Positions 8,963-20,009 of a stretch of 20,009 nucleotides of DNA are shown here, in pieces; position 1 is the first letter of the stretch; each line of letters starts with the position of its first letter. The DNA lies in IMG/VR virus record IMGVR_UViG_2617270955_000003; one strand, written 5' to 3'. Both the position numbers and the translations under genes were made by a program. The notes under the pieces are model-generated. The model did no database searches. It was not told the DNA's origin and was given only the letters and a program-made list of their open reading frames with translations. Source of the DNA: a virus. Its lineage: Duplodnaviria > Heunggongvirae > Uroviricota > Caudoviricetes.

Positions 8963-9507
8963 AAACGGGAGCCGAAGCTATCCGGGCGCTGGCCACGCAG
9001 CTCCCGGCGTTTCGTCAGAAACTGAATGAGGGCTGGTATCAGGTGCGCATTGCCGGGCGTGATGCAGGCGAAAACGAATTATCTGCCCGTCTTAATGAGC
9101 CGCTGGCAAATGGTGCCGTGATCCACATCGTGCCGCGTCTGGCGGGAGCTAAAAGTGGCGGTGTGTTTCAGGTGGTGCTGGGGGCGGCGCTGATTGCGGT
9201 GGCATGGTGGAACCCTGTGGGCTGGCTGGGTGCCGCGGCTGTATCGGGCATGTATGCGGCAGGGGCCAGTATGATCCTGGGTGGTGTGGCCCAGATGCTG
9301 GCACCGAAAGCCCGGACGCCCACAGCGACCAGCACGGATAACGGTAAGCAGAACACCTATTTCTCATCACTGGATAACATGGTTGCCCAGGGCAATGTTC
9401 TGCCTGTTCTGTACGGTGAAATGCGCGTGGGGTCTCGTGTGGTTTCTCAGGAGATCAGCACGGCAGATGAAGGGGACGGTGGTCAGGTTGTGGTGATTGG
9501 CCGCTGA
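8860..9507 (+). CDS. I: Tail assembly protein I
   Basis: 215 aa; N-terminus MAATHTLPLASPGMARICLYGDLQRFG and C-terminus ...QNTYFSSLDNMVAQGNVLPVLYGEMRVGSRVVSQEISTADEGDGGQVVVIGR match lambda gpI as recalled. Confidence 0.9.
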   Translation: MAATHTLPLASPGMARICLYGDLQRFGHRIDLRVKTGAEAIRALATQLPAFRQKLNEGWYQVRIAGRDAGENELSARLNEPLANGAVIHIVPRLAGAKSGGVFQVVLGAALIAVAWWNPVGWLGAAAVSGMYAAGASMILGGVAQMLAPKARTPTATSTDNGKQNTYFSSLDNMVAQGNVLPVLYGEMRVGSRVVSQEISTADEGDGGQVVVIGR

Positions 9508-9525
9508 TGCAAAATATTTCATGTG

Positions 9526-9550
9526 AAACCGCCTCCGGGCGGTTTTGTCG
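9526..9550 (+). terminator. Stem-loop plus T-rich tract between I and J
   Basis: AAACCGCC-TCCG-GGCGGTTT followed by TGTCGTTT. Confidence 0.45.
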
Positions 9551-9567
9551 TTTATGGAGCATGACGA

Positions 9568-12500
9568 ATGGGCAAAGGAAGCAGTAAGGGGCATACCCCG
9601 CGCGAAGCGAAGGACAACCTGAAATCCACGCAATTACTGAGTGTGATCGATGCCATCAGCGAAGGGCCGATTGAAGGTCCGGTGGATGGATTAAAAAGCG
9701 TGCTGCTGAACAGTACACCGGTGCTGGACAGTGAGGGGAATACCAACATCTCCGGTGTTACGGTGGTGTTCCGGGCAGGTGAGCAGGAGCAGACACCGCC
9801 GGAGGGATTTGAATCCTCCGGTTCCGAGACGGTGCTGGGTACGGAAGTGAAATACGACACGCCGATCACCCGCACCATCACGTCGGCAAACATCGACCGT
9901 CTGCGCTTTACCTTCGGTGTGCAGGCACTGGTGGAAACCACCTCAAAGGGGGACAGGAATCCATCGGAAGTCCGCCTGCTGGTTCAGATACAACGTAACG
10001 GTGGCTGGGTGACGGAAAAAGACATCACCATTAAGGGTAAAACCACCTCACAGTATCTGGCCTCAGTGGTGGTGGATAACCTGCCGCCGCGCCCGTTTAA
10101 TATCCGGATGCGCAGGATGACGCCGGACAGCACCACAGACCAGCTGCAGAACAAAACGCTCTGGTCGTCATACACCGAAATCATCGATGTGAAACAGTGC
10201 TACCCGAACACGGCACTGGTCGGCGTACAGGTGGACTCGGAGCAGTTCGGCAGCCAGCAGGTGAGTCGTAATTATCATCTTCGCGGGCGCATTCTGCAGG
10301 TGCCGTCGAACTATAACCCGCAGACGCGGCAATACAGCGGTATCTGGGACGGAACGTTTAAGCCGGCATACAGCAACAACATGGCCTGGTGTCTGTGGGA
10401 TATGCTGACCCATCCGCGCTACGGCATGGGAAAACGTCTTGGTGCGGCAGATGTGGATAAATGGGCGCTGTATGTCATCGGCCAGTACTGCGACCAGTCG
10501 GTGCCGGACGGCTTTGGCGGCACGGAGCCGCGCATCACCTGTAATGCGTACCTGACCACACAGCGTAAGGCGTGGGATGTGCTCAGTGATTTCTGCTCGG
10601 CGATGCGCTGTATGCCGGTATGGAACGGGCAGACGCTGACGTTCGTGCAGGACCGGCCGTCGGATAATGTGTGGACCTATAACCGCAGTAATGTGGTGAT
10701 GCCGGATGATGGCGCGCCGTTCCGCTACAGTTTCAGCGCCCTGAAGGACCGCCATAATGCCGTTGAGGTGAACTGGACTGACCCGGATAACGGCTGGGAA
10801 ACGGCAACAGAGCTTGTGGAGGACACGCAGGCCATTGCCCGTTATGGTCGTAATGTCACGAAGATGGATGCCTTTGGCTGTACCAGCCGGGGGCAGGCAC
10901 ACCGCGCCGGGCTGTGGCTGATTAAAACGGAGCTGCTGGAAACGCAGACCGTGGACTTCAGCGTGGGCGCAGAAGGGCTTCGCCATGTACCGGGCGATGT
11001 TATTGAAATCTGCGATGATGACTATGCCGGTATCAGCACCGGTGGTCGTGTGCTGGCGGTGAGCAGCCAGACCCGGACGCTGACGCTCGACCGTGAAATC
11101 ACGCTGCCATCCTCCGGCACCACGCTGATAAGCCTGGTTGACGGAAGTGGCAATCCGGTCAGCGTGCAGGTCCAGTCCGTCACCGACGGCGTGAAGGTGA
11201 AAGTGAGCCGGGTTCCTGACGGCGTTGCAGAATACAGCGTGTGGGGGCTGAAGTTGCCGACGTTGCGCCAGCGCCTGTTCCGCTGTGTGAGTATCCGTGA
11301 GAACGACGACGGCACGTATGCCATCACCGCCGTGCAGCATGTACCGGAAAAAGAAGCCATCGTGGATAACGGGGCGCACTTTGACGGCGACCAGAGCGGC
11401 ACGGTGAATGGTGTCACGCCGCCAGCGGTGCAGCACCTGGCCGCAGAAGTCACTGCAGACAGCGGGGAATATCAGGTGCTGGCGCGATGGGACACACCGA
11501 AGGTGGTGAAGGGCGTGAGCTTCCTGCTCCGTCTGACCGTAACAGCGGACGACGGCAGTGAGCGGCTGGTCAGCACGGCCCGGACGACGGAAACCACATA
11601 CCGCTTCAGGCAACTGGCGCTGGGGCGTTACACGCTGACGGTCCGGGCGGTAAATGCGTGGGGGCAGCAGGGCGATCCGGCATCGGTATCGTTCCGGATT
11701 GCGGCACCGGCAGCGCCTGTCACTATTGAACTGATACCAGGGTATTTTCAGATAACAGCGGTCCCGAAACTGGCTGTATATGACCCGACGGTGCAGTTTG
11801 AGTTCTGGTTCTCGGAAAAGCGGATTATCGATATCAGGCAGGTTGAAACCAGCGCGCGTTATCTTGGTACGGCGCTGTACTGGATAGCCGCCAGTAGCAA
11901 TATTAAGCCGGGTTATGATTATTACTTTTATATCCGCAGCGTGAACACCGTTGGTAAATCGGCATTTGTGGAGGCCGTTGGTCGGGCGAGCGATGATGCG
12001 GAAGGTTATCTGAATTTTTATAAAGGGTTGATCAATAAAACGCATCTCGGCAAGGAACTGCTGGAAAACTTTGAGCTGACGGAAGATAACGCCAGCAAAC
12101 TGGAGGAGTTTTCGAAAGAGTGGAAGGACGCCAACGATAAATGGAATGCCATGTGGGGCGTCAAAATTGAGCAGACCAAAGACGGCAAACATTATGTCGC
12201 GGGGCTTGGCCTCAGCATGGAGGATACGGAGGAAGGCAAACTGAGCCAGTTCCTGGTTGCCGCTAACCGTATCGCGTTTATTGACCCGGCAAACGGGAAT
12301 GAAACGCCGATGTTTGTGGCGCAGGGCAACCAGATATTCATGAACGACGTGTTCCTGAAGCGCCTGACGGCCCCCACCATTACCAGCGGCGGTAATCCTC
12401 CGGCATTTTCCCTGACACCGGACGGGCGGCTGACGGCGAAAAATGCCGATATCAGCGGTAACGTGAATGCGAACTCCGGGACGCTCAACAACGTCACGAT

Positions 12501-12963
12501 TAACGAGAACTGCCGGGTTCTGGGAAAACTGTCCGCGAACCAGATTGAAGGCGATCTCGTTAAAACAGTGGGCAAAGCTTTCCCCCGTGACTCCCGGGCA
12601 CCGGAGCGGTGGCCATCAGGGACCATTACCGTCAGGGTTTATGACGATCAGCCGTTTGACCGGCAAATTGTTATTCCGGCTGTGGCATTCAGTGGCGCTA
12701 AGCATGAGAGAGAGCATACTGATATTTACTCCTCATGCCGTCTGATAGTGCGGAAAAACGGTGCTGAAATTTATAACCGTACCGCGCTGGATAATACGCT
12801 GATTTACAGTGGCGTTATTGATATGCCTGCCGGTCACGGTCACATGACGCTGGAGTTTTCGGTGTCAGCATGGCTGGTAAATGGCTGGTATCCCACAGCA
12901 AGTATCAGCGATTTGCTGGTTGTTGTGATGAAGAAAGCCACTGCAGGCATCACGATTAGCTGA
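9568..12963 (+). CDS. J: Central tail fibre / host specificity protein J, with divergent C-terminal receptor-binding region
   Basis: 1131 aa; GGAG RBS 8 nt upstream; N-terminal ~1000 aa match lambda gpJ as recalled, with fibronectin-III-like repeats; last ~145 aa are homologous to but clearly different from lambda. Confidence 0.95.
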
Positions 12964-12982
12964 ATTTTATAACCCAGATACG

Positions 12983-13007
12983 GGCACCAGAAATGGTGCC
13001 TTTTTTA
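12983..13007 (+). terminator. Intrinsic terminator after J
   Basis: GGCACC-AGAAAT-GGTGCC hairpin followed by TTTTTTATT. Confidence 0.6.
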
Positions 13008-13030
13008 TTGCAGAAAAGCGAGAGGTAATT

Positions 13031-13630
13031 ATGCGTAAATTATGTGCTGTTATTCTATCCGCAGTAGTCTGGCTGGTTGCCGCTGGTACGCCAGCGAGCG
13101 CAGCAGAGCATCAGTCCACACTAAGCGCCGGGTATCTTCAGACCCATACTGATATGCCAGGCAGTGATGACCTGAAGGGCATTAACGTGAAATACCGTTA
13201 TGAATTTACGGACACGCTGGGGCTGGTGACGTCATTCAGTTATGCCAATGCCAAAGATGAGCAAAAAACGCATTACAGCGATACCCGCTGGCATGAAGAT
13301 TCAGTGCGTAACCGCTGGTTCAGCATGATGGCGGGGCCATCTGTACGCGTGAATGAATGGTTCAGTGCTTATGCGATGGCAGGTGTGGCTTACAGCCGTG
13401 TTTCGACGTTCTCCGGGGATTATCTCCGCGTAACTGACAACAAGGGGAAAACGCACGATGTGCTGACCGGAAGTGATGACGATCGCCACAGCAACACGTC
13501 TCTGGCGTGGGGAGCTGGCGTGCAGTTTAACCCGACCGAATCCGTGGCCATTGATATTGCTTATGAAGGCTCCGGCAGTGGCGACTGGCGCACTGACGGT
13601 TTCATCGTGGGTGTCGGTTATAAGTTCTGA
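13031..13630 (+). CDS. lom: Lom outer membrane protein (Ail/OmpX/PagC family)
   Basis: 199 aa; signal peptide MRKLCAVILSAVVWLVAAGTPASA; beta-barrel OMP signature with C-terminal ...GFIVGVGYKF; GAGAGG RBS; same position as lambda lom. Confidence 0.95.
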   Translation: MRKLCAVILSAVVWLVAAGTPASAAEHQSTLSAGYLQTHTDMPGSDDLKGINVKYRYEFTDTLGLVTSFSYANAKDEQKTHYSDTRWHEDSVRNRWFSMMAGPSVRVNEWFSAYAMAGVAYSRVSTFSGDYLRVTDNKGKTHDVLTGSDDDRHSNTSLAWGAGVQFNPTESVAIDIAYEGSGSGDWRTDGFIVGVGYKF

Positions 13631-13657
13631 TTAGCCAGGTAACACAGTGTTATGACA

Positions 13658-13683
13658 GCCCGCCGGTTCAGGCGGGCTTTTTT
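13658..13683 (+). terminator. Intrinsic terminator after lom
   Basis: GCCCGCC-GGTTCA-GGCGGGC hairpin followed by TTTTTT; a corresponding hairpin follows lom in lambda as I recall it. Confidence 0.65.
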
Positions 13684-13686
13684 GTG

Positions 13687-14397
13687 CACAGAAAACCCCC
13701 AGCTAGGCTGGGGGTTCCGGAAAGCTTTCAGCTTTAAGCCAGTTATTAAAACCCCTTTTGATTTGTTAAAACACCTTGCGGTCTGGCAACTGCAAGTGTC
13801 AAACAAGAAATCAAAAGGGGGTCCCAATGGGGAACGAAAAGAGCTTAGCGCACACCCGATGGAACTGTAAATATCACATAGTTTTTGCGCCAAAATACCG
13901 AAGACAGGTGTTCTACAGAGAGAAGCGTAGAGCAATAGGCAGTATTTTGAGAAAGCTGTGTGAGTGGAAAAGTGTACGGATTCTGGAAGCTGAATGCTGT
14001 GCAGATCATATCCATATGCTTGTGGAGATCCCGCCCAAAATGAGCGTATCCGGCTTTATGGGATATCTGAAAGGGAAAAGCAGTCTGATGCTTTACGAGC
14101 AGTTTGGTGATTTGAAATTCAAATACAGGAACAGGGAGTTCTGGTGCAGAGGGTACTACGTCGATACGGTGGGTAAGAACACGGCGAAGATACAGGATTA
14201 CATAAAGCACCAGCTTGAAGAGGATAAAATGGGAGAGCAGTTATCGATTCCCTATCCGGGCAGCCCGTTTACGGGCCGTAAGTAACGAAGTTGGATGCAA
14301 ATGTCAGATCGTGTGCGCCTGTTAGGGCGCGGCTGGTAAGAGAGCCTTATAGGCGCATTTGAAAAACCTCCGGCTATGCCGGAGGATATTTATTGTG
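13687..14397 (+). mobile_element. IS200-family insertion sequence (IS200/IS605 family), about 0.7 kb, boundaries approximate
   Basis: Contains an IS200-type TnpA gene; left end carries an 8-bp-stem hairpin (CCCCCAGC-TAG-GCTGGGGG, 13696..13714); element sits where lambda has only about 10 bp between the lom terminator and the stf start; length fits IS200 (about 707 bp). Confidence 0.7.
13827..14285 (+). CDS. tnpA: IS200-family transposase TnpA (HUH single-strand transposase)
   Basis: 152 aa from ATG 13827 (MGNEKSLAHTRWNCKYHIVFAPKYRR...); HUH motif in ...CADHIHMLVEIPP...; the track start at 13776 is an upstream in-frame extension. Confidence 0.9.
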   Translation: MGNEKSLAHTRWNCKYHIVFAPKYRRQVFYREKRRAIGSILRKLCEWKSVRILEAECCADHIHMLVEIPPKMSVSGFMGYLKGKSSLMLYEQFGDLKFKYRNREFWCRGYYVDTVGKNTAKIQDYIKHQLEEDKMGEQLSIPYPGSPFTGRK

Positions 14398-14405
14398 GAG
14401 TGGAT

Positions 14406-16784
14406 ATGGCAGCAGTAAAAATCTCAGGTGTGCTGAAAGATGGTGCGGGAAAACCAATACAGAACTGCACTATTCAACTGAAGGCAAAGCGTAACAGCAC
14501 CACGGTACTGGTGAACACGGTGGCTTCTGAAAATCCGGATGAAGCCGGACGTTACAGCATGGATGTTGAGCATGGTCAGTACAGCGTCACCCTGCTGGTT
14601 GAAGGTTTTCCGCCTTCACATGCCGGGACCATTACCGTCTATGAAGGTTCCAGACCAGGTACGCTGAATGATTTTCTCGGTGCCATGACGGAGGATGATG
14701 TCCGACCGGAGGCACTGCGCCGCTTTGAGCAGATGGTGGAAGAAGCGGCACGCAACGCTGAAGCCGCCTCTCAGAGCGCAGCGGCGGCAAAGAAATCCGA
14801 AACTGCAGCGGCATCATCGAAGAACGCGGCGAAAACCTCAGAAACGAATGCAGCTAACAGCGCACAGGCGGCAGCGACCTCAAAGACTGCATCGGCAAAC
14901 TCCGCGACAGCAGCCAAAAAATCAGAAACCAACGCGAAAAATAGCGAGACAGCCGCAAAGACGAGCGAAACCAACGCAAAGTCCAGCCAGACGGCAGCGA
15001 AAACCAGCGAAACGAATGCCAAAGCCAGTGAAACTGCGGCAAAAAACAGCCAGGTTGCAGCAGCCCAAAGCGAGAGCGCGGCAGCCGGTTCTGCGACTTC
15101 AGCAGCTGGATCAGCAACTGCTGCGGCTAACAGCCGGAAAGCTGCGAAGACGAGTGAAACTAACGCAAAGTCCAGCCAGACGGCAGCGAAGACCAGCGAA
15201 ACGAATGCCAAAGCCAGCGAAACTGCGGCGAAAAACAGTCAGGATGCAGCAGCCCAAAGCGAGAGTGCTGCAGCTGGTTCTGCAAGCGCGGCGGCTGCTT
15301 CTGCCACTGCATCAGCCAACAGTCAAAAAGCAGCAAAAACCAGTGAAACCAATGCAAAGACAAGCGAGACTGCAGCGGCGAACTCGGCGAAAGCATCCGC
15401 TGCAAGCCAGACCGCTGCAAAAGCAAGTGAAGACGCAGCCAGAGAGTATGCAAGCCAGGCAGCAGATCCGTATAAATATGTCTTACAGCCGCTGCCTGAT
15501 GTGTGGATACCGTTTAACGATTCACTGGATATGATTACGGGCTTTTCGCCATCATATAAAAAGATTGTTATTGGTGACGACGAAATAACGATGCCTGGCG
15601 ACAAGATTGTTAAGTTTAAACGTGCATCGAAAGCAACCTATATTAACAAATCTGGTGTGCTGACAGAGGCTGCCATTGATGAGCCACGATTTGAACGTGA
15701 TGGCCTGCTTATTGAGGGGCAAAGAACTAATCTTCTGCTTAATTCAACAAATCCATCTAAATGGAATAAGTCAGGCAATCTGGAACTCACAGAAATATCC
15801 ACGGATTCTTTTAATTTTACTTATGGGAGATTTACTGTAAAAGATACTCTTATTGGTCAGACAAGTGCTATTAATATCGTAACGATTTCTGGCAGTAAAG
15901 GGTTTGATGTCACAGGTGATGAAAAATATGTGACCATTTCATGCCGTGTAAGAAGTGATGTTGAAAATATAAGGTGTCGTTTAAGATTTGAACACCATGA
16001 TGGTTATACTTACACTTTTTTGGGAGATGCTTACCTCAATTTATCAACACTTGTAATTGATAAAACTGGTACTGCTGCAGACCGTATTATTGCAAAGGCT
16101 GTAAAAGATGAGGTTACTGGTTGGATTTTCTATCAGGCTACAATTAATGCACTAGATACAGAGAGCATGATTGGTGCGATGGTTCAATACGCTCCTGTAA
16201 AAGGTTCAGGTACAGCATCTGGAGACTATCTGGATATCGCAACTCCACAAGTGGAAGGTGGATCAAGTGCTTCGTCATTTATTGTAACTGATATAACTGC
16301 AAGCACTCGCGCAAGCGATATGGTGACAGTCCCAATCAAGAATAACCTTTATAATCTTCCTTTTACGGTTCTTTGTGAGGTACATAAGAACTGGTATAAA
16401 ACGCCAAATGCAGCACCGCGTGTTTTTGATACCGGCGGTCATCAAACCGGAGCGGCTATTATTCTTGGCTTCGGTCGTTCAACAGATTACGACGGATTTC
16501 CTTATTGTGATATAGGTTTGGCTAACAGACGGGTAAACGAAAACGCATCGCTTGAAAAAATGGTTATGGGGATGCGTGTAAAGTCAGATCAGTCTACGTG
16601 CTCAGTAAGTAACGGGCGTATATCCAGCGAAAAGAAAGCCACATGGTCCTATATTCAGAACTCCGCAATTATCCGTATTGGAGGCCAGACTACAGCCGGG
16701 TTGCGTCATTTATTTGGTCATGTCAGGAATTTCAGAATATGGCACAAGGCATTGACTGATGCTCAGATGGGGGAGTCAATCTAA
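14406..16784 (+). CDS. stf: Side tail fibre protein (lambda Stf-like N-terminus, repetitive Ala/Ser/Thr shaft, divergent AT-rich C-terminal domain)
   Basis: ATG 14406 gives MAAVKISGVLKDGAGKPIQNCTIQLKAKRNSTT..., matching the lambda Stf N-terminus as recalled; the track start at 14376 falls in the IS200 end region. Confidence 0.9.
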   Translation: MAAVKISGVLKDGAGKPIQNCTIQLKAKRNSTTVLVNTVASENPDEAGRYSMDVEHGQYSVTLLVEGFPPSHAGTITVYEGSRPGTLNDFLGAMTEDDVRPEALRRFEQMVEEAARNAEAASQSAAAAKKSETAAASSKNAAKTSETNAANSAQAAATSKTASANSATAAKKSETNAKNSETAAKTSETNAKSSQTAAKTSETNAKASETAAKNSQVAAAQSESAAAGSATSAAGSATAAANSRKAAKTSETNAKSSQTAAKTSETNAKASETAAKNSQDAAAQSESAAAGSASAAAASATASANSQKAAKTSETNAKTSETAAANSAKASAASQTAAKASEDAAREYASQAADPYKYVLQPLPDVWIPFNDSLDMITGFSPSYKKIVIGDDEITMPGDKIVKFKRASKATYINKSGVLTEAAIDEPRFERDGLLIEGQRTNLLLNSTNPSKWNKSGNLELTEISTDSFNFTYGRFTVKDTLIGQTSAINIVTISGSKGFDVTGDEKYVTISCRVRSDVENIRCRLRFEHHDGYTYTFLGDAYLNLSTLVIDKTGTAADRIIAKAVKDEVTGWIFYQATINALDTESMIGAMVQYAPVKGSGTASGDYLDIATPQVEGGSSASSFIVTDITASTRASDMVTVPIKNNLYNLPFTVLCEVHKNWYKTPNAAPRVFDTGGHQTGAAIILGFGRSTDYDGFPYCDIGLANRRVNENASLEKMVMGMRVKSDQSTCSVSNGRISSEKKATWSYIQNSAIIRIGGQTTAGLRHLFGHVRNFRIWHKALTDAQMGESI
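14953..15283 (+). repeat. Tandem in-frame duplication of about 189 bp (63 codons) in the stf shaft
   Basis: Segments 14953..15094 and 15142..15283 are near-identical at offset 189 bp (...GTCCAGCCAGACGGCAGCGAA.ACCAGCGAAACGAATGCCAAAGCCAG.GAAACTGCGGC...), encoding repeated AAKTSETNAKSSQTAAKTSETNAKASETAAKNSQ. Confidence 0.85.
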
Positions 16785-17065
16785 TGAAAGATTTAACACT
16801 CAAATTTGCAGACAGGGCCGACTTTTCGGCCTTTATGGATAGCATTGGCTATTATGATGACGAGTCGATGCAGGATGATATTCTTATTGACGTGATAGGT
16901 AACGTGTACAAAGAAACCGGAGAACTGACTGAAGATGGCGAACCGGTATGTGTTAAGGAAGATGGATATTATGTAAACGTGCGCATCATTAATGATGCAA
17001 AAAAATCGTCAATATTCGATGAATACGCGGTTGTAGTTGAACATCAACTTCGTGGCTGGATGTGA
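16784..17065 (+). CDS. Hypothetical small acidic protein (93 aa), translationally coupled to stf
   Basis: ATG overlaps the stf stop (TAATG); AT-rich like the stf 3' half; occupies the position where lambda has tfa but does not resemble Tfa. Confidence 0.55.
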   Translation: MKDLTLKFADRADFSAFMDSIGYYDDESMQDDILIDVIGNVYKETGELTEDGEPVCVKEDGYYVNVRIINDAKKSSIFDEYAVVVEHQLRGWM

Positions 17066-17074
17066 GGGAGACAA

Positions 17075-17779
17075 ATGGCTACATCGACAGTAATTCCAGG
17101 AGACATCACCACGTTAAAGGGAGATGTCAGTAAAGCCAAGGAAGATATTTCCTCAATTAACGGAAAAGTATCAACGCTTCAGGCTGATATGACCAGTGCA
17201 AAGCAGGATATCAGCACCAGATACACAAAAACTGAAGTTGATAATAAGCTGAAAAACAAACTGGAAGTGAACGCTCTGGAAAGCGGTCGTTATGGTGGAG
17301 ATTTTTACCCGTTGACTGGCCGTGAAGCGTTTTATTTGTGGGGATTGGGCACGACTACAGCGGCGGCAAACCTTTATCTTAATCCTGACCCCGCAATTTC
17401 GTCTGTGCTGCGGTCAACATCGTCTATCCGCTATAAACATTCAGTAGAGACAATAGATTCAGAGCACGCCGATCTCATTTTCAGGATGCGCCCTGTGTGG
17501 TACAGGTCACAATGCGAAAATGACAGGCGTGACTGGGGATTCTACGGATTGATTGCCGAGGAAGTAGGAGAAATTGCCCCTCAGTTTGTACACTGGCGAC
17601 CAGCTAACGAAGATGATGCACCGGAAGCTATTTCCAGCAATGGCCTTGTTGCCGAAGGTGTAATGTACGAACGTCTGGTTGTTCCACTGATTCACCATAT
17701 CCAGAAGCTGACTGAAAGAGTTGATGAACTTGAGTCAGAATTAAAGTTGTTATCCGTTTCCCGAAGCGATATCGGATAA
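17075..17779 (+). CDS. Tail-fibre-like protein with C-terminal intramolecular-chaperone (peptidase S74-like) domain
   Basis: 234 aa; GGGAG RBS; N-terminal periodic coiled-coil-like segment; C-terminal ...SSIRYKHSVETIDSEHADLIFRMRPVWY...WGFYGLIAEEVGEIAPQFV...NGLVAEGVMYERLVVPLIHHIQKLTERVDELESELK resembles the autoproteolytic chaperone domains of phage fibres and tailspikes. Confidence 0.65.
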   Translation: MATSTVIPGDITTLKGDVSKAKEDISSINGKVSTLQADMTSAKQDISTRYTKTEVDNKLKNKLEVNALESGRYGGDFYPLTGREAFYLWGLGTTTAAANLYLNPDPAISSVLRSTSSIRYKHSVETIDSEHADLIFRMRPVWYRSQCENDRRDWGFYGLIAEEVGEIAPQFVHWRPANEDDAPEAISSNGLVAEGVMYERLVVPLIHHIQKLTERVDELESELKLLSVSRSDIG

Positions 17780-17789
17780 AGGAGGAGTA

Positions 17790-18077
17790 ATGGATATAAG
17801 CCCCTTACTTCATGCACTTTGTGCTGTGGCTGCGCAAACACTGGTTGGTCTTTTTACCGGAAACTGGGCTTACGGAGCGATAGCCGGTTGTACGTTCTTC
17901 ATTGCGCGTGAACACACCCAGGCAGAATATCGCTGGATCGAAATGTTCGGGCATGGCAAGCGAATGAATATGCCGTGGTGGGGCGGTTTTGATCCGCGCG
18001 CGTGGGATGTGACAAGCCTGATGGATTTTGCTGTGCCGGTGGTGGCGTGTCTGCTGATCTGGATGTTGATCCGTTAA
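17790..18077 (+). CDS. Hypothetical small membrane protein (95 aa, 2-3 predicted TM segments)
   Basis: Strong RBS AAGGAGGAG 7 nt upstream; hydrophobic N-terminal and C-terminal segments; last gene before attP. Confidence 0.6.
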   Translation: MDISPLLHALCAVAAQTLVGLFTGNWAYGAIAGCTFFIAREHTQAEYRWIEMFGHGKRMNMPWWGGFDPRAWDVTSLMDFAVPVVACLLIWMLIR

Positions 18078-18084
18078 ATATAAA

Positions 18085-18120
18085 AGCCGCAGTAACTTGC
18101 CATGATAGGATACTGCGGCT
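18085..18120 (+). repeat. Inverted repeat / hairpin downstream of the membrane-protein ORF
   Basis: AGCCGCAGTA ... TACTGCGGCT (10-bp arms, 16-nt loop); no following T-tract, so terminator function is uncertain. Confidence 0.3.
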
Positions 18121-18317
18121 GGCTGGTTAACTTTCGATAGTGCGAGTATTGAATGATTTCCAGCCGTTACTGATTTTATATAACGGCAGTGGAATTATTC
18201 AACACACAGGCAAAACACAGGCAAAACGGAATAAGCTGAGAAAAAAAGCGTGCTTTCCCAATCTGGGGCAAATCACGTCTGAATGACACCTGAAAACAGG
18301 TGGTGGACTCAAGAAGG

Positions 18318-18395
18318 CTTGGAATATTCTTCTTTAATGTTATGTAATTCATTGATTTTTCGTGTACGATTTTAAGACATTTATTCCAAGAAGAA
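18318..18395 (+). promoter_or_regulatory. Candidate integrase arm-type binding sites (P arm): one direct and one inverted CTTGGAATA motif
   Basis: CTTGGAATATTCTTC at 18318..18332 and its inverted relative TTATTCCAAGAAGAA at 18381..18395, upstream of the tRNA-like core. Confidence 0.5.
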
Positions 18396-18429
18396 TTTTT
18401 AACTCTTTGATTTTTCTACTCTGTATCAT

Positions 18430-18491
18430 CGGTCTCGAAAACCGGAGTGGGGGCAACTCCACCGGGGGTTCAAATCCCCCTCTCTCCGCCA
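18430..18491 (+). tRNA. Partial tRNA-Ser(CGA) (serU-like) 3' segment, anticodon stem to CCA; probable att core
   Basis: Anticodon loop CTCGAAA (anticodon CGA), long variable arm, T-arm GGGGG-TTCAAAT-CCCCC, acceptor 3' strand TCTCTCC, discriminator G and CCA at 18489..18491; no matching 5' acceptor/D-arm upstream, so not a complete gene. Confidence 0.75.
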
Positions 18492-18536
18492 AAATTCAAT
18501 CACTTACACATCATTAAGTCAGTGACAAAAATCACA

Positions 18537-18572
18537 CTTGGAATTACTTGGAATATTTTCTTGGAATATTTT
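18537..18572 (+). promoter_or_regulatory. Candidate integrase arm-type binding sites (P' arm): three direct CTTGGAAT(T/A) repeats
   Basis: CTTGGAATTA (18537..18546), CTTGGAATATTTT (18547..18559), CTTGGAATATTTT (18560..18572); they overlap the last about 10 codons of int. Confidence 0.55.
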
Positions 18573-19569
18573 CAGGTAACGGGACATCAAGTGTTGGTGA
18601 AACTTTAACCTTCCTGTCATAGATTAGCACTTGCCCTTCGGTTTTGTGACCAGAGAAAAGTTGCTTATCCCGGCTGCTTCCTTCATAGTCTGAAATTCCT
18701 TTCGCCTTCAGATCATGAAAGGTGAAGTCGGTTAAAATACCTGAAATTTTTCCAGCACGATTTCTTGCATCTACCCACATTTCGTTAAAGCCTTTGTACA
18801 TATATCGGTTGCCGTATTGATTGCTGATCACATAGGCAGATTTTGGTAACTGTTTTGCTTTTTCGATCGCTGCCTGTAATCGTGGACTCCATGCTTTTAT
18901 CTGTTTTTTTCCGGTTTTCCCTTGCTGGATGAATATCCCGTCGTTTCCAATCTGTTCCCATTTCAGCGATAACACATCGGAAACCCTCGCTGCACACAGA
19001 TAGGCAATTTCCATTGCGATAAAAACAGGAAGAGGTGCAACGCTTAATACTGCCTGGTATTCTTTGTCGGTTACATATCGTTCGCGGTTTTTGGCCTTGA
19101 ATTTACTTACACCTGCACATGGGTTAGCCTTCACGTACCCTCGCTCATACCCCCAACTGTAAACACGGGACATACTGCTTTTTTCATGGTTGGCTTGCGT
19201 TTTACTCTGCTCCCCTCTTTTGTCCATGTATCGACGGATGTGTTCTGGTTTTATGGAATCCGCTGGTACCTTACCGAATACGGCAAGCAACTTTTTTTGA
19301 TGTTGCAGATAATCTTTTTGTGTTCTTGGACTAAGGTCACTGTAATAGGCGCTGGCGAGGAATTTTTCCCACAAGCGACCGAATGTCATTGCACGATCGC
19401 GATTATTTACAGTTTCCTCATACTTTTTCCATAAAGCAGCTAAACCATCCTTGATGGCGGTTAGTGTGACAGATTCTCTGGATGTTGGTTTCCATACATA
19501 ACTATATTTATTTGGGTATACATTTGGAGGTAATTTTTCGTGTTCAGGATTTTTCCTTCGTCTTCCCAT
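18544..19569 (-). CDS. int: Tyrosine integrase (lambda Int family)
   Basis: 341 aa; lambda-like arm-binding N-terminus MGRRRKNPEHEKLPPNVY; catalytic-region signatures ...HDLKAKG... and ...GHKTEGQVLIYDRK (candidate Tyr); adjacent to attP; start overlaps the xis-like stop (TGATG). Confidence 0.95.
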   Translation of the reverse strand: MGRRRKNPEHEKLPPNVYPNKYSYVWKPTSRESVTLTAIKDGLAALWKKYEETVNNRDRAMTFGRLWEKFLASAYYSDLSPRTQKDYLQHQKKLLAVFGKVPADSIKPEHIRRYMDKRGEQSKTQANHEKSSMSRVYSWGYERGYVKANPCAGVSKFKAKNRERYVTDKEYQAVLSVAPLPVFIAMEIAYLCAARVSDVLSLKWEQIGNDGIFIQQGKTGKKQIKAWSPRLQAAIEKAKQLPKSAYVISNQYGNRYMYKGFNEMWVDARNRAGKISGILTDFTFHDLKAKGISDYEGSSRDKQLFSGHKTEGQVLIYDRKVKVSPTLDVPLPENIPRKYSK

Positions 19570-19772
19570 CAGATCGCACCAAAATTCGGCTCTACCTCGC
19601 GTGGTGGTAAAGTTTTATTGCAGGTAAATAGATCCCGGCTGACAATCGGTTTGCCACTACGATTGGTATAGAACGGAAGCCCGTTTTCTATTAACCATTT
19701 TCGCTGGTGGCTTGCATATTTGCAGCCCGTTAATATTAGCAATTCATCTTCGGTTAAAAATAAGCTGCTCAT
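19569..19772 (-). CDS. Excisionase-like protein (DUF4224-like small DNA-binding protein)
   Basis: 67 aa, MSSLFLTEDELLILTGCKY...WLIENGLPF...; immediately upstream of and coupled to int, the usual xis position. Confidence 0.7.
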   Translation of the reverse strand: MSSLFLTEDELLILTGCKYASHQRKWLIENGLPFYTNRSGKPIVSRDLFTCNKTLPPREVEPNFGAI

Positions 19773-19789
19773 AGCTATATCTCATAACC

Positions 19790-19815
19790 GCCGCTAACTA
19801 TATACGGTTAGCGGC
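19790..19815 (+). repeat. Perfect 9-bp inverted repeat (GCCGCTAAC-N8-GTTAGCGGC) between the exonuclease stop and the xis-like start
   Basis: Read directly from the sequence; no T-tract on either strand. Confidence 0.5.
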
Positions 19816-19830
19816 AATTAGGGTTGAACA

Positions 19831-20009
19831 TTAAAAATCAGCCTGACTCGGGATCAGTTTTTGCCAGATAGCTGAAACGTATTTTGCCTGGTAACGAGCG
19901 TCATCAAGTGCATTATGGCGCTCACCTTCGAATGGAATAGCCGTTCTGGCATCGAAGTCTATGGCTTTCCCCAGCTCAACGATTGTGCGTACATCGCGAT
20001 CGTTGTAGT
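19831..20009 (-). CDS. DnaQ-like (DEDDh) 3'-5' exonuclease, C-terminal part; 5' end beyond the window
   Basis: Minus-strand frame open from the window edge to the stop at 19831..19833; translation ...DFDARTAIPFEGERHNALDDARYQAKYVSAIWQKL... contains an Exo III-like H-x-A-L-x-D-A motif. Confidence 0.55.
   Translation of the reverse strand, partial: YNDRDVRTIVELGKAIDFDARTAIPFEGERHNALDDARYQAKYVSAIWQKLIPSQADF

Follow-up and report, generated by a model that had tools for sequence, protein, structure and literature searches.

Insertion sequences of the IS200/IS605 family are mobilised as single-stranded DNA ("peel and paste") by a Y1/HUH transposase, with a bias for the lagging-strand template, and subterminal hairpins in place of inverted terminal repeats are a hallmark of the family. 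Its structural and mechanistic paradigms are IS608 of Helicobacter pylori and ISDra2, which encode TnpA proteins homologous to that of IS200, possess subterminal hairpins on the same strand at both ends and, as IS200 does, insert 3′ of a short specific sequence without duplicating it. Unlike these two, IS200 is devoid of tnpB, and it inserts at a T-tract (TTTTT or TTATT), in most cases behind a hairpin, whereas IS608 and ISDra2 target TTAC or TTGAT. For IS1541, the ortholog of Yersinia, insertions at terminator-like sequences of Yersinia pestis were reportedly described by Odaert and coworkers in 1998. In a published survey, an excess of terminator-like sequences was seen directly upstream of insertion sequences, and it was strongest for IS200/IS605 (PMC13548323). 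Group IIC introns are likewise mobile elements that home 3′ of Rho-independent terminators (PMC4748821). They share with IS200 the use of target sites outside genes that are shielded from transcription, but their mechanism, based on a ribozyme and a reverse transcriptase, is entirely unlike that of an HUH single-strand DNA transposase, and the two are not related as families.

The published IS200 of Salmonella is 707 bp in length and, like the 711-bp element described here, encodes a single Y1 transposase of 152 aa with the HUH motif and Y125, exchange of which (Y125F) yields a catalytically dead TnpA mutant (PMC4513863). Its landmarks are a terminator at nt 12-34, a hairpin acting bidirectionally against incoming transcription, and a 5′-UTR stem-loop at nt 69-138, and the strand opposite the tnpA 5′-UTR region encodes the antisense sRNA art200 (PMC4513863). 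The left-end hairpin is a strong terminator which stops about 85% of the transcripts coming in from upstream (PMC5435999). IS200, IS200C and IS1541 have in common this left-end terminator hairpin (nt 11-33 in the element described here), the lack of inverted terminal repeats, a 5′-UTR stem-loop hiding the Shine-Dalgarno sequence AAGGGGGU, a match to the Rfam family STnc490, a right-end hairpin related to that of the left end, and insertion without target duplication, as was also found here. Compared to known IS200C copies, solely the location of the present one is particular, namely the late operon of a lambdoid prophage between lom and stf. At the DNA level it is about 92% identical to a copy of Salmonella enterica subsp. 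houtenae.

The window, that is the whole stretch of 20,009 nucleotides that was analysed (IMG/VR record IMGVR_UViG_2617270955_000003), comprises the tail region of a lambdoid prophage, and over positions 502-18506 it shares 99.96% identity with a prophage of the E. coli ST131 strain EC958. The coordinates of the features discussed here are compiled in Table 1. The prophage encodes a Q-type antiterminator. The IS1 with which the window begins truncates the major capsid gene, with the junction at 502/503 and a capsid remnant extending to 926, and the identical IS1-capsid junction is present in E. coli TUM1857, which lacks the N-terminus of the capsid gene as well as the genes for protease, portal, terminase and lysis. 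Since IS1 truncates the capsid gene as in TUM1857, the prophage is defective. At the other end of the window (18430-20009), behind the att core comes the integrase end of this prophage, which is the gene order of the phage form (attP) or of tandem prophages. The chromosome of strain noe1104 has the tandem order, unlike EC958 and TUM1857, which show the order of a single prophage with zinT adjoining the tail fibres. The integrase gene is marked as frameshifted by PGAP in EC958, TUM1857 and noe1104. A tRNA scan of the window returned no complete tRNA, the att core containing only the 3′ fragment of tRNA-Ser.

Table 1 Coordinates of the features in the window and the observations on which their assignment is based
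Feature	Position	Strand	Basis or remark
IS1 (IS1B-like) end, terminal repeat ...AATCAGTAAGTTGGCAGCATCACC ending at 502	1-502		window starts inside the element
J (tail tip gene)	9568-12963	+	ORF list, Pfam search, PGAP
lom (Ail/Lom outer-membrane protein), upstream of the insertion	13031-13630	+	Pfam Ail_Lom E 1.7e-127; PGAP in EC958
lom intrinsic terminator	13657-13683	+	8-bp GC stem 13657-13678 overlapping T6 tract 13678-13683
IS200C element, complete, 711 bp (GTGCACAG...ATATTTATT)	13684-14394	+	empty sites at two independent insertions; PGAP name IS200C
Left-end subterminal hairpin, 10-bp stem, 3-nt loop	13694-13716	+	inverted repeat; fold -18.7 kcal/mol
tnpA 5′-UTR stem-loop hiding the tnpA Shine-Dalgarno sequence	13752-13820	+	inverted repeat; fold -37.2 kcal/mol, z -5.1
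tnpA, Y1 HUH transposase, 152 aa, intact	13827-14285	+	Pfam, NCBIfam, PDB relatives, catalytic residues
Internal hairpin between tnpA stop codon and right-end hairpin	14313-14357	+	fold -27 kcal/mol
Right-end subterminal hairpin (14367-14385) and terminal tail ATATTTATT (14386-14394)	14367-14394	+	repeat search, terminator scan
stf Shine-Dalgarno sequence GGAG and start codon ATG	14397-14400; 14406-14408	+	identical in empty sites; PGAP start in EC958
stf-like side tail fibre gene, 792 aa, ORF intact	14406-16784	+	Pfam phage_tail_N E 2.6e-67; PGAP WP_001554173.1
att core, about 77 nt, with 3′ part of tRNA-Ser	18430-18491 (tRNA-Ser part)		after the tail-fibre genes
Integrase gene int	18544-19569	-	stretch 100% identical to ST131 genomes

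Between the lom T-tract and the stf start codon 722 nt are found, which hold the intact ORF for a protein of 152 aa. The product matched the Pfam family Y1_Tnp (PF01797) with an E-value of 3.8e-38 and the NCBIfam equivalog of the IS200 transposase (transpos_IS200, NF033573) with 147.7 bits at a cutoff of 55, and its relatives of solved structure in the PDB are 2EC2, 2A6M (E 3.9e-19) and 2XM3 (E 1.9e-16). The HUH motif H61-I-H63 and Y125 are both present. Moreover, the structured left end matched Rfam STnc490 at 13694-13817 on the plus strand with 146 bits (E 2.4e-31, gathering score 56). At the locus PGAP/RefSeq gives the label "IS200/IS605-like element IS200C family transposase" in EC958, JJ1886, CFT073 and many other genomes, and one and the same transposase protein, WP_000526135.1, is common to EC958, CFT073 and TUM1857. 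The element thus combines the traits of the IS200 group within IS200/IS605: a Y1 HUH single-strand DNA transposase with its catalytic tyrosine, related same-strand subterminal hairpins instead of terminal inverted repeats, insertion without target-site duplication both at lom-stf and at a second site, which separates ren from ninB, and integration 3′ of a short conserved target resembling its own right-end terminus. Its layout is that specific to IS200, with a size of about 0.7 kb, tnpA as the only gene, a left-end terminator, a stem-loop hiding the Shine-Dalgarno sequence and a region for an antisense sRNA. The IS200-type assignment of the earlier note, made from the sequence without database searches, is therefore borne out by the Pfam, NCBIfam, PDB and Rfam matches and by the PGAP name, and so is the placement between the lom terminator and the stf start, with the T-tract ending at 13683 and the Shine-Dalgarno sequence and ATG of stf beginning at 14397 and 14406.

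The STnc490 match lies on the tnpA-sense strand and begins at the left-end terminator hairpin. According to Ellis et al. 2015, STnc490/art200 is antisense to the tnpA 5′-UTR; the Rfam model STnc490 seems to represent the structure of the sense strand.

For the definition of the exact ends, 36 copies were included in a comparison of the termini. The lom-stf site alone leaves the insert ambiguous over GTG, from 13684-14394 to 13687-14397. In the comparison of the right ends with 30 other IS200/IS1541 copies, which had been collected by scanning genome contigs and from two phages, the right end always read ...GGAGGATATTTATT, with divergence beyond. The ren-ninB site is ambiguous over TTTATT, and its overlap with the ambiguity at lom-stf leaves one solution, GTGCACAG...ATATTTATT. 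The element was therefore assigned to 13684-14394, because the right end is invariant and because this is the only solution common to both insertion sites. Of the boundaries 13687-14397 proposed before, the length of 711 bp was retained, and the coordinates, which had been set 3 nt too far to the right, were replaced. Counting from 13684 as nt 1, the published terminator (nt 12-34) falls on 13695-13717 and the published 5′-UTR stem-loop (nt 69-138) on 13752-13821. Removal of the 711 bp restores sites of 100% identity, that is, the target bases are intact and no target duplication is present.

The hairpin at the left end, which had at first been read at 13696-13714, is real and forms a 10-bp stem (Table 1). 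By analogy with the family it may also be the hairpin bound by TnpA. The Shine-Dalgarno sequence of tnpA (AAGGGGGT, 13815-13822) is paired inside the predicted 5′-UTR stem-loop. At the right end, the hairpin together with the tail ATATTTATT was terminator-like on both strands in a terminator scan. The left and right 23-nt segments AAAACCCCCAGCTAGGCTGGGGG and AAAACCTCCGGCTATGCCGGAGG are direct repeats with 78% identity, and each of the two hairpins is preceded by AAAA. A promoter scan covering 12900-14600 found no sigma-70-like promoter and thus lends no support to an outward promoter that drives stf. The segment is a complete IS200C copy, which is probably still competent for transposition. 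As a side observation, the insertion creates an in-frame ATG in the right-end hairpin, by which the stf ORF is extended by 10 codons (MPEDIYCGVD, 14376-14405); this extension has no Shine-Dalgarno sequence upstream, and the start annotated by PGAP is the ATG at 14406.

The lom terminator folds with -18.2 kcal/mol (z -3.3), was also detected by the inverted-repeat search and the terminator scan, and is left unbroken by the element, which follows directly 3′ of the last T of its T-tract. At the same junction, a "terminator" feature is annotated in the phages mEp460 and Ayreon. In-silico removal of the 711 bp gave a lom-stf sequence of 500 nt that is found uninterrupted and with 100% identity in E. 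coli Ecol_316, while the empty site occurs with 98-99.6% identity in several phages, e.g. 2G7b and PhiR46_1, and also in a sister prophage (97% identical) of strain noe1104. In the empty site the junction is of the lambda type, consisting of lom, an intrinsic terminator and stf within about 10 nt; T-tract and stf ATG are 11 nt apart (GTGGAGTGGAT), which agrees with the spacing of about 10 bp put forward for the uninterrupted state. The empty-site sequence reached a coverage of at least 80% in 4,594 E. coli genomes and 180 phage records; the number of genomes includes the 151 filled sites described below, as the search joins pieces up to 750 bases apart. By far the most lom-stf junctions are of the empty type, which is also the state in most lambdoid prophages. 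That the spacing of 0.7 kb is ancestral and was lost by the other phages, in which case no insertion would have taken place, is thus a reading of practically negligible probability: the segment is a complete mobile element known from many unrelated loci, in many phages and prophages the empty sites fit base for base, and most junctions are empty. No point in its favour was found, and it was refuted by the base-exact empty sites together with the right-end comparison, so that the view of an insertion, taken in the earlier note, holds.

In order to characterise the target, the sequences to the left of IS200/IS1541 copies in other genomes were surveyed (117 unique flanks, loci L002-L121), the copies coming from many genera such as Yersinia, Serratia, Citrobacter, Vibrio and Phytobacter. 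A perfect GC hairpin ending at most 12 nt from the element was present in 86 of these flanks (74%) compared to 130 of 2,000 random positions drawn from the same loci (6.5%), and the commonest distance between hairpin and element was 6 nt. The last 6 nt of the flanks consist of T to 87%, compared to 24% at the random positions. Regarding the last 5 nt, TTTTT was found in 55 and TTATT in 15 of the 117 flanks, the remainder being other T-rich sequences. The right end of the element itself also terminates in TTATT, and at one locus (L095, about 2156-3560, minus strand) two copies are arranged in tandem, the second directly after the ...ATATTTATT of the first. The lom terminator is a textbook IS200 target, and the position of the element is typical. 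The locus illustrates clearly how IS200 favours the 3′ edge of intrinsic terminators.

A second insertion of the same kind was found in the genomes of Lambda_ev058 (LR597651; L122, 3003-3713) and PhiR63_2 (PV340574; L123), in which an IS200 of 99% identity is located between ren and ninB. It stands directly after a hairpin with T-tract, presumably the terminator tR2 of lambda, and points in the direction of early rightward transcription. Several Lambda-like phages possess the exact empty site (300 nt, 100% identity). Both carriers were deposited as phage genomes, one of them with a named propagation host.

IS200C thus inserted just 3′ of the last T of the lom terminator, co-oriented with the late operon and with no target bases lost or duplicated. 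The target, a GC hairpin with T-tract, would resemble the right end of the element, i.e. hairpin plus ATATTTATT, and the A4 tract preceding each subterminal hairpin would base-pair with the T-rich sequence at which cleavage or insertion takes place. The idea of an A4 guide is taken from IS608; for IS200 the pairing is suggested by the position of the A4 tract 5′ of both hairpins. When single-stranded, a terminator may resemble the right end to such a degree that it serves as a target beyond the mere tolerance of an insertion. It is a tentative proposal, and one we would sooner doubt than accept, that terminators are mimics of the right end, the true structural targets of IS200-group transposases, and safe landing sites in antiterminated phage operons. 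The terminators at ren-ninB and lom may be such safe sites of lambdoid phages, where N and Q antitermination would cancel the polarity of the element and IS200 could be carried in viable phages. If true, terminator mimicry would explain both the avoidance of genes by a nearly dormant insertion sequence and its carriage by phages.

With respect to stf, the earlier note had suggested that the insertion separates the gene from upstream late transcription and may reduce or rewire its expression. In lambda, polarity caused by insertions and terminators is suppressed through antitermination by N and Q, and polymerase modified by Q transcribes past terminators; stf is dispensable in laboratory lambda, lambda PaPa being viable without functional stf. 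The best explanation, which as a whole is very probably correct, is that an IS200C copy sits at its usual target behind the lom terminator, where it would be an essentially neutral passenger with stf still transcribed. The terminator of lom and that of the left end shield tnpA from outside transcription, stf keeps its own ribosome-binding site, and after induction the Q-modified, terminator-resistant RNA polymerase would still transcribe stf on a late transcript 711 nt longer. Because a strong terminator is located 11 nt before the stf ATG in the empty site, transcription of stf must already resist terminators, and due to this ancestral terminator directly upstream and the encoded Q antiterminator a strong effect on stf expression appears unlikely. 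It becomes less likely still because the Shine-Dalgarno sequence and the ATG of stf are unchanged by the insertion and the element has no promoter-like site, and because two phage genomes carry IS200 likewise behind another terminator. Additionally, the suggested effect is weaker than was stated since the prophage is already defective owing to the IS1-truncated major capsid gene, and for this reason an effect of IS200 on stf would have no consequence for phage production here.

Three other outcomes have to be weighed against a neutral passenger. The left-end terminator and the terminator-like right end could stop most of the late transcription, leaving little or no side tail fibre. Such a polar block is in line with the termination of about 85% of upstream transcripts at the left-end hairpin (PMC5435999), with the discovery of IS200 as a polar insertion (PMC4513863) and with the terminator-like score of the right-end hairpin plus ATATTTATT. 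The lom-IS200-stf junction is moreover found in no deposited phage genome: among the 180 phage records with a full-length junction match none has IS200 at lom-stf. However, the canonical terminator that precedes the stf start in the ancestral junction means that stf already needs terminator-resistant transcription, Q is encoded in the prophage, and IS200 occupies an equivalent position, behind the ren-ninB terminator in an antiterminated operon, in the two deposited phage genomes, which makes a polar block an unlikely outcome; stf would be strongly reduced if Q antitermination were inefficient in this prophage. An effect on translation instead of transcription, in which the new upstream context lowers stf translation, appears less probable again. 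Eleven nucleotides lie between the end of the right-end hairpin and the Shine-Dalgarno sequence, and the tail of the element can pair with the region from Shine-Dalgarno to AUG in a predicted helix of 9 bp between AUAUUUAUU (14386-14394) and AGUGGAUAU (14399-14407). In two of three modelled contexts the mean unpaired probability of this region was 0.26-0.28 with the element versus 0.38-0.63 without it, but the third context gave the reverse (0.61 with and 0.49 without), the helix is rich in A-U and G-U pairs with three G-U pairs and only about -3.6 kcal/mol, and the first two G of the Shine-Dalgarno sequence are unpaired in every model.

Still further from expectation, to be given very little credence, is a co-opted element, retained because its RNAs (the processed tnpA 5′-UTR or the antisense art200) or a weak outward promoter would regulate stf or host genes. 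An sRNA derived from the IS200 5′-UTR regulates host genes in Salmonella (PMC5435999; bioRxiv 2024.06.26.600842), the structured left end is intact in the window copy, and the junction persists in 151 genomes and at least two prophage backgrounds. This persistence is, however, accounted for by clonal descent (ST131) and by exchange of the lom-stf module through recombination, positions 12900-14600 yielded no promoter-like site, and the sequence is that of a standard IS200C with nothing specific to the locus. Nor is the window copy special among its host genomes, the E. coli genomes with a match having a median of 3 matching places.

The distribution of the insertion was determined with two junction queries of 160 nt, and the left and the right junction were each found in 151 of 5,426 complete E. 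coli genomes. These include ST131 strains, among them EC958 and JJ1886, as well as CFT073 and several animal isolates, and the left junction was additionally found in eight IMG/VR contigs. A number of 1,992 records, obtained at a coverage of at least 80%, was rejected as a count of filled junctions, since 83% of that query is made up of the insertion sequence itself. The neighbouring tail genes of CFT073 are 89-91% identical to the window, and the segment from lom over IS200 to the N-terminus of stf is mostly 97-100% identical with the same junctions. This pattern fits one old insertion that was carried along by recombination of the lom-stf module between prophages, and the same insertion would then travel in a mosaic module across several prophage lineages; repeated insertion at the same nucleotide is a possible alternative history of the filled junctions. 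Both the element and its lom-stf position are already known, being annotated in CFT073, EC958 and JJ1886, and a search of the literature for an IS200 insertion in connection with ST131, lom or stf found none. The importance of the insertion is small, and its main use is that of a lineage marker for the lom-stf module of ST131, CFT073 and other prophages.

Some minor observations were made on the sequences in and around this module. In one IMG/VR contig with the left junction (IMGVR_UViG_651053022_000004; L133, 1252-1420), the insertion sequence breaks off after about 36 nt into a rearranged J-like sequence, a probable artefact of draft assembly at a repeat. Within the J gene of the window, an antisense ORF of 674 aa is located at 10168-12192 on the minus strand, which probably arises from the codon composition of J. 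The shaft region of stf contains internal repeats of about 250 nt (14940-15189 and 15129-15377) with 83% identity, and these repeats are present as well in the versions of the gene in EC958, CFT073 and noe1104.
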